Shown: piece after piece, positions 17,431 to 18,212 of the stretch
How positions within the stretch are numbered: position 1 is the first letter of the stretch
How the letters are laid out: every line of letters starts with the position of its first letter
Source of the DNA: Escherichia coli
Lineage (GTDB): Bacteria; Pseudomonadota; Gammaproteobacteria; Enterobacterales; Enterobacteriaceae
Reading direction: 5' to 3' (one strand)
Assembly: GCF_044324875.1 (NCBI RefSeq)
Contig: NZ_CP172185.1
DNA: 64,000 nucleotides
Program-made: the position numbers and the translations under genes
The notes under the pieces: generated by a model
Database searches by the model: none
What the model was told of the DNA's origin: nothing
The model's input: only the letters and a program-made list of their open reading frames with translations

Positions 17431-17968
17431 GTGATGGTGGTTGGGGAAGGATTATTCAGCGCTGCGCGCTTCACCCTTCGGGTCGTTGCCTGCGGCAACG
17501 CTCTCTCGCTGGCGCTCGAGTCGAACCTTGGTCGAAGCTTCTCATCCTTCCCCGCTTGGGCAGAATATTTAATTACGGATTCGTTTGAGAGTTCAGGGAC
17601 TTTTGAAAGTGATGGTGGTGGGGGAAGGATTACTCAGCGCTGCGCGCTTCGCCCTTCGGGTCGTTGCCTGCGGCAACGCTCTCTCGCTGGCGCTCGAGTC
17701 GAGCCTTGGTCGAAGCTTCTCATCCTTCCCCGCTTGGGCAGAATATTTAATTACGGATTCGTTTGAGAGTTCAGGGACTTTTGAAAGTGATGGTGGTGGG
17801 GGAAGGATTACTCAGCGCTGCGCGCTTCGCCCTTCGGGTCGTTGCCTGCGGCAACGCTCTCTCGCTGGCGCTCGAGTCGAGCCTTGGTCGAAGCTTCTCA
17901 TCCTTCCCCGCTTGGGCAGAATATTTAATTACGGATTCGTTTGAGAGTTCAGGGACTTTTGAAAGTGA
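17431..17968 (-). repeat. Three tandem ~178-bp repeats of the tyrT operon distal region (rtT/tpr region)
   Basis: Units beginning at 17431, 17609 and 17786, each starting with a copy of the 3'-terminal ~19 nt of tRNA-Tyr; near-identical units. Confidence 0.9.
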
Positions 17969-18053
17969 TGGTGGTGGGGGAAGGATTCGAACCTTCGAAG
18001 TCGATGACGGCAGATTTACAGTCTGCTCCCTTTGGCCGCTCGGGAACCCCACC
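17969..18053 (-). tRNA. tyrT: tRNA-Tyr (GUA)
   Basis: Reverse complement reads GGTGGGGTTCCCGAGCGGCCAAAGGGAGCAGACTGTAAATCTGCCGTCATCGACTTCGAAGGTTCGAATCCTTCCCCCACCACCA. Confidence 0.95.
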
Positions 18054-18089
18054 ACGGGGTAATGCTTTTTACTGGCCTGCTCCCTTATC

Positions 18090-18135
18090 GGGAAGCGGGG
18101 CGCATCATATCAAATGACGCGCCGCTGTAAAGTGT
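18090..18135 (-). promoter_or_regulatory. tyrT promoter (-35 TTTACA, -10 TATGAT, GC-rich discriminator)
   Basis: Minus-strand hexamers at 18126-18131 and 18103-18109, GCGCCCCGC discriminator; classic stringent promoter layout upstream of tRNA. Confidence 0.7.
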
Positions 18136-18212
18136 TACGTTGAGAAAAATGAACTGGTTGCGTAATTTTCACCCGTAACGGATTAAAGGTAACCAGTTAT
18201 TTTTGCTGGCGA

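Follow-up and report, generated by a model that had tools for sequence, protein, structure and literature searches.

A probable one-gene form of the Escherichia coli tyrT operon, with a single tRNA-Tyr gene followed by three RtT repeats

The stretch of Escherichia coli DNA analysed here (64,000 nucleotides; hereafter, the window) contains a locus that is very probably the tyrT operon in a one-gene allelic form, consisting of one promoter, one tRNA-Tyr gene and three RtT units, all on the same strand. It is identified as tyrT because the synteny with purU and narI, the promoter, the sequence of the tRNA, the matches to the Rfam model of RtT and the RefSeq annotation all agree. The one-gene state is a common natural polymorphism of the species.

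The locus occupies the interval between purU and narI, as it does in E. coli K-12, and is transcribed in the direction of narI (Table 1); in the window, 962 bp separate the narI stop from the purU stop. Open reading frames of narH, narJ and narI lie on the plus strand on one side, and those of purU, ychJ, rssA and rssB on the other; the order looks like the one usual for E. coli (narH to rssB were checked by name), and the same ORF map displays no obvious insertion element. The intrinsic terminator of the convergent narGHJI operon marks the distal boundary of the tyrT intergenic region. In all 64 kb of the window, the only tRNA gene that ARAGORN detects is tRNA-Tyr (GTA). The Rfam tRNA model agrees with this assignment and finds no second tRNA in positions 18054-18212, between tRNA-Tyr and purU. 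The 85-mer is an exact match to both tyrT and tyrV of K-12. Homologous loci carry the RefSeq labels "tRNA-Tyr" and "RtT sRNA, processed from tyrT transcript".

Table 1. Features of the tyrT locus in the window, and elements at related loci discussed in the text
Feature	Coordinates	Strand	Basis and remarks
narI	16573-17250	+	ORF map
Intrinsic terminator of the convergent narGHJI operon	17269..17299	+	Terminator scan; GC stem and T run
Partial fourth repeat unit ("0.14" copy)	17429..17453	-	One-mismatch 19-mer (AATCCTTCCCCAACCACCA) followed by TCACTT
Repeat unit 3, 178 bp	17454..17631	-	RtT 17435-17566; Tpr ORF cut to 24 aa
Repeat unit 2, 178 bp	17632..17809	-	RtT 17613-17744; Tpr ORF 17634-17723
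Repeat unit 1, 178 bp	17810..17987	-	RtT 17791-17922; Tpr ORF 17812-17901
Single tRNA-Tyr, anticodon GUA, 85 nt with encoded CCA	17969..18053	-	ARAGORN, Rfam tRNA
Precursor start region and 5' leader	18054..18103	-	Flank comparison
Predicted tyrT promoter	18104..18131	-	Consensus scan, 10/12 matches; -35 TTTACA, 16-nt spacer, TG-extended -10 TATGAT
purU	18213-19055	-	ORF map
7-kb island, example	NZ_CP107114.1 1031000-1062000, locus positions 1280-8390		Also in three other fetched loci
Upstream RtT-like element, Citrobacter amalonaticus	4988-5130		
Upstream RtT-like element, Kosakonia quasisacchari	1648-1789		
Upstream RtT-like element, Trabulsiella odontotermitis	1919-2064		

The tyrT promoter is predicted from its match to the consensus and from its identity to the K-12 sequence; the whole region upstream of the tRNA differs between the window and K-12 by a single base. 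The promoter match is followed by the G+C-rich GCGCCCCGCTTCCCG, with GCGCCCCGC as the G+C-rich discriminator after TATGAT. The leader that separates this promoter from the tRNA is the 5' flank of tyrT type (...GCCAGTAAAAAGCATTACCCCGT), and not the 34-nt spacer of tyrV type. Within the series of promoter, tRNA-Tyr and three RtT units, the consensus scan produced no intervening promoter match of comparable quality.

Downstream of the tRNA, Tandem Repeats Finder reports an array at 17429-17987 in which a 178-bp period is repeated 3.1 times, with 98% matches and no indels. When the array is cut in register, the first 19 nt of each unit are AATCCTTCCCCCACCACCA, which are also the last 19 nt of the tRNA; unique sequence begins beyond the partial fourth unit. 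No difference separates units 1 and 2 over their 356 bp (17632-17987; 100% identity), and unit 3 has three differences. The identity of the first two units suggests either a very recent duplication of a unit or gene conversion within the array.

Each full unit has a full-length match to the RtT family of Rfam (RF00391, gathering score 45), with scores of 134.2, 129.9 and 129.9 bits and with model positions 1-130 covered; the match in unit 1 extends 19 nt into unit 2. In the Rfam alignment, GGGGAAGGAU is paired with AUCCUUCCCC in each unit to form the closing helix, and the tail CACCACCA copies the 3' end of the tRNA. In both helix and CCA tail, the three matches do not differ from the family model. 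The predicted fold of a single RtT unit has z = -0.9 and is no more stable than shuffled sequence; it is thus the Rfam covariance model, and not thermodynamics, that supports the structure. An RNA of this kind is released from the tyrT transcript and is stable, with a length of ~170 nt, according to Bosl and Kersten (1991) as cited in PMC3318445.

The Tpr ORF, for a protamine-like protein of 29 aa (b1229 in K-12), is intact in units 1 and 2, on the minus strand, and is identical to the ORF in unit 1 of K-12. The shorter version in unit 3 is due to a GGC-to-GGT change, which creates a TGA stop. In strains A28 and RM9387, Tpr is represented only by stubs of 9 codons, and it is truncated in most units of K-12, 214-4 and other strains. 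No CDS is annotated by RefSeq/PGAP within the repeats at the homologous loci that were examined. Judged by this pattern of truncation across strains, the Tpr ORF does not behave like a conserved coding sequence. On the opposite strand, plus-strand ORFs of 111, 119 and 99 aa run antisense to the RtT units and span the repeat units. The array's period, 178, cannot be divided evenly by 3. Both strands, the tRNA-sense strand included, have stretches of comparable length without a stop, and these vary in position and length from strain to strain. The three ORFs are best treated as artefacts of G+C-rich repeated sequence.

Much of this layout had been anticipated by a reading made from the sequence only, which described a single tRNA-Tyr behind a classic tyrT promoter, followed by three units of ~178 bp with the final ~19 nt of the tRNA at the start of each; recognised in them the distal repeat of the tyrT operon with RtT and the Tpr ORF; and dismissed the three plus-strand ORFs. 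All these points are borne out: ARAGORN and Rfam concur on the tRNA, the promoter region is that of K-12 bar one base, the units emerge both from Tandem Repeats Finder and from the in-register cut, synteny, Rfam and RefSeq all support the identity of the repeats, and PGAP makes no call for the ORFs. The coordinates proposed were accurate within 2 bases. The reading also stated, correctly, that K-12 has two tandem tRNA-Tyr genes, and placed only one at the locus analysed here.

In MG1655, the order of elements is promoter, tyrT, a 209-nt spacer, tyrV, and then 3.14 copies of the 178-bp repeat; the tyrT promoter serves both tyrT and tyrV, and the third tRNA-Tyr gene copy is tyrU (PMC2887954). 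The 209-nt spacer of K-12 is itself composed of a diverged RtT unit of 175 nt, which ends in the same 19-mer, and of 34 additional nt (TCTCAAGCATTACCTCAAAATTTGAATTACCCCT). The K-12 operon (tyrT-tyrV-rttR-tpr, b1229-b1231) has in common with the window its site, the 85-nt tRNA, the 29-aa Tpr ORF and a distal array of 3.14 x 178 bp, in which each unit opens with the 19-nt 3' end of the tRNA. The window differs from K-12 in having one tRNA gene instead of two and in lacking the 209-nt spacer; moreover, window units 1 and 2 are identical to each other, whereas the units of K-12 are 6-9 positions away from those of the window.

The single gene of the window combines a 5' flank of tyrT type with a 3' flank of tyrV type, as expected if the two identical 85-bp genes recombined with each other. 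The identical direct repeats tyrT and tyrV would have undergone homologous recombination or replication slippage, with the loss of one gene together with the spacer, i.e., 119 bp if the parent had the short spacer described below, or 294 bp if it was of K-12 type. The loss would have taken place either in the lineage of the window or in the donor of a segment imported later. We infer this mechanism for the window's own strain; a pair of sister genomes offers a direct view of its outcome elsewhere. WP9-S17-ESBL-11, with one gene, and CFSAN061763, with two, are identical over 5 kb except for one indel of 119 bp, the junction of which is ambiguous over 88 bp, i.e., over the 85-bp tRNA plus 3 bp. 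This indel is a clean tRNA-to-tRNA deletion. Unequal crossing-over between the duplicated genes, as the sequence-only reading had suggested, thus fits both the hybrid flanks and the sister pair.

The tyrT locus, its repeats and the loss of a tRNA gene by recombination have been textbook material since the 1970s, and neither the locus, the repeats nor one-gene loss through recombination of the tandem copies is new. Russell et al. are said to have described, in 1970 and in phi80 psu3, tyrT "singlets" that arose from "doublets" by unequal recombination, and Egan and Landy reportedly sequenced a single-gene tyrT fragment in 1978. The laboratory singlets have one tRNA-Tyr gene joined directly to the 178-bp repeats, as in the window; they were carried by a transducing phage, whereas the allele in the window is chromosomal and belongs to a standing natural polymorphism. 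A literature search found no papers on deletion of tandem tRNA genes at tyrT.

We took a census of 5,426 complete E. coli genomes. A broad BLAST search matched the locus in 5,425 of them, but proved unreliable for counting genes, because pieces of the repeats are joined into one place; four short junction-specific BLAST queries were used instead. A 33/34-nt inter-tRNA spacer, indicative of two genes, occurs in 4,825 genomes, including a subset of 1,920 with the long spacer of K-12 type. The tyrT leader, the tRNA and the RtT flank are contiguous, as in the one-gene locus of the window, in 196 genomes, and the leader, the tRNA and an island flank are contiguous, also with one gene, in 393. These three classes (4,825, 196 and 393) are exclusive and account for 5,414 of the 5,426 genomes. 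One-gene alleles are thus present in 589 genomes (10.9%), and two genes in 89%. The long-spacer form known from K-12 makes up 35%, and the two-gene form with the short spacer is the majority (~54%, or ~2,900 genomes by subtraction). Here the sequence-only reading needs correction: it overrated the rarity of the one-gene state and took as reference the K-12 layout, itself a minority form. The layout with two genes and a 209-nt spacer should not be taken as the norm of the species. The 33/34-nt spacer has the appearance of a 175-bp deletion between the two 19-mers of the K-12-type spacer.

Copy number at the locus is variable in other respects as well. Among the loci that were fetched, two genes with the 34-nt spacer are followed by 1, 2 or 3 RtT units, and one gene is followed by 1, 2, 3 or 5 units; in yet other loci, a 7-kb gene cluster stands where the RtT array would be, behind either one or two tRNA genes. 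The best matches to the window among the 5,426 genomes have 99.1% identity over 5 kb and 99.5% over 24 kb. Since these matches are imperfect, Shigella was considered as a source, but the gene order and the 99.97% identity of the purU-side 6.4 kb to an ordinary E. coli assembly keep the window with E. coli. NarG and RssA have exact matches in thousands of assemblies and do not tell these apart. Four RefSeq genomes (WP9-S17-ESBL-11, WP2-W18-ESBL-10, CE2050 and GTEN_97) are colinear with the window over 5 kb at 99.1% identity, and WP9-S17-ESBL-11 has, like the window, one tRNA-Tyr and three RtT units.

These genomes bear on the possibility that the single gene is an artefact of assembly, in which two genes are truly present and the 85-bp direct repeat was collapsed, with one gene and the spacer dropped. 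The two tRNA copies are identical, so that an assembly graph built from short k-mers would contain a loop, and the prevalence of two-gene loci among complete genomes points the same way. Yet this assembly keeps three 178-bp units apart, two of them without a single difference over 356 bp, which is a harder task than a pair of tRNA genes set apart by a unique spacer; and a single gene is seen in all 589 finished RefSeq genomes counted above, including the four that are colinear with the window, so no artefact is needed to account for a one-gene locus. We consider collapse of the repeat unlikely.

A true loss of one gene is the favoured reading, and such loss has happened more than once. One-gene alleles are found on at least three flanking haplotypes (that of the window, that of A28 and RM9387, and that of WP9), and the number of RtT units differs among them; the loss is therefore recurrent. 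Over 6.4 kb on its purU side, the window has only 2 bases that differ from L032, a two-gene genome (99.97% identity). When the window is compared with WP9-S17-ESBL-11, 43 of the 44 differences fall in 16495-18172, i.e., in the 3' half of narI, the array and the promoter region. There is hardly any difference between these two genomes in the neighbouring ~1 kb and 2.3 kb. The interval 16495-18172 looks like a recombination patch, with its boundaries in or next to the repeat array. Because the differences from the WP9 lineage are clustered in this way, the allele in the window may have been imported by recombination rather than formed in its own lineage; the structure is the same in either case.

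Recurrent loss could also be read as a sign of selection, with a lower dosage of tRNA-Tyr1 or an altered ratio of tRNA to RtT being adaptive in some niches, through growth-rate economy or through interplay with phage defence systems that target tRNA-Tyr. Apart from the recurrence, this idea draws on the single junction shared by the 393 island genomes and on the importance of the tRNA-Tyr supply for defence by retron-Eco7 and for phage escape from it (PMC11555353). Recurrent loss, however, is also predicted without any selection if 85-bp direct repeats recombine at a high rate, and the 393 genomes with the island junction may belong to one clade; on this evidence, there is only a very slim chance that the one-gene state was selected.

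The direction of change is indicated by other species. In a scan of species-representative genomes for the conserved RtT motif, 13 loci were found, and the tyrT locus itself was recovered in 7 representatives. Two tRNA-Tyr genes are present at tyrT in all seven, namely E. albertii, Escherichia sp. E1V33, E. coli E69, Citrobacter amalonaticus, Kosakonia quasisacchari, Raoultella sp. and Trabulsiella odontotermitis; therefore, the two-gene state is ancestral, and the one-gene state is derived. In five of the seven, the spacer measures ~206-214 nt and contains RtT; it is shorter in E1V33 (138 nt) and in Trabulsiella (35 nt). The long form of the spacer is the one mostly seen in the outgroup species. 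That the window descends from an ancestral single gene, in a lineage which never underwent a duplication that other E. coli acquired later, has a probability close to nil: nothing specific speaks for it, except that the structure taken alone gives no direction, and against it stand the two genes in every outgroup representative recovered with the locus and in most E. coli, the two-gene state of the closest relatives on the purU side, and the occurrence of one-gene alleles on several unrelated flanking haplotypes.

Transcription of the operon yields a single precursor and ends in a rho-dependent manner within the repeats; RNase P and 3' processing set the tRNA free. At the window locus, a strong sigma-70 promoter would drive one transcript with the precursor of tRNA-Tyr1 and three RtT units, from which tRNA-type processing would release the tRNA and the RtT RNAs. 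In each of the latter, the 19-nt end of the unit, made of the T-arm, acceptor and CCA sequences, would pair with GGGGAAGGAU upstream, closing a long hairpin and leaving the CACCACCA tail. We infer such processing from what is known of the operon, and likewise a dosage effect, with one tRNA-Tyr1 per transcript instead of two. The number of tRNA-Tyr genes falls from 2 to 1 at tyrT and presumably from 3 to 2 in the genome. In the one-gene RefSeq genomes of rows H228-H230, tRNA-Tyr has just two matches in the whole genome; the position of tyrU is beyond the window.

E. coli thus has either 2 or 3 tRNA-Tyr genes, depending on the strain, which is relevant to indices of tRNA adaptation, to suppressor work with tyrT/tyrV and genetic-code engineering, and to studies of defence systems that target tRNA-Tyr. 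A more far-reaching proposal is that the copy numbers of tRNA-Tyr (1 or 2) and RtT (0 to 5) make up a fast-switching dosage polymorphism under selection, for which the candidate pressures, if it were true, would be the economics of growth rate, effects of RtT on the stringent response, and phage defence systems by which tRNA-Tyr is depleted. We regard this proposal as very unlikely; the alternative is neutral instability of the repeats. Hundreds of RefSeq genomes already contain the one-gene allele as such, with a correct annotation, and the recovery of this allele here matters little.

Several related loci have unusual architectures. A 7-kb cluster of seven genes takes the place of the entire RtT array between tRNA-Tyr and narI in 393 complete E. 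coli genomes, and begins 16 bp past the 3' end of the tRNA (Table 1). Its first four genes code for a fatty-acid desaturase, a protein of the sterol desaturase family, a PAP2 phosphatase and an F390-synthetase-related protein, and the last three for an MBL-fold hydrolase, an NAD epimerase/dehydratase and a KAS-III-like protein. In other genomes, the same island stands behind two tRNA genes with a 33-nt spacer. In GCA_024302965.1 (1164-2363), most of the RtT array has given way to the gene for a DDE transposase, belonging to an insertion element, which is located between narI and a single tRNA-Tyr. In E. coli CKJ_1000_3.1 (NZ_CM176478.1, 4.33 Mb), the sole match to the locus is 85 nt long, with 97.6% identity and 2 mismatches; we take it to be tyrU, and if so, the tyrT locus is missing from this genome and one tRNA-Tyr gene is left.

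RtT is found in other positions too. In Intestinirhabdus alba, a full-length RtT (118 bits) directly follows tyrU in the thrU-tyrU-glyT-thrT operon (4039-4299), and RtT is therefore tied to the 3' ends of tRNA-Tyr generally, not to tyrT alone. In C. amalonaticus, K. quasisacchari and T. odontotermitis, a weaker RtT-like element (63-74 bits, 142-146 nt) is located upstream of the first tRNA-Tyr gene, at the place where E. coli has its promoter.
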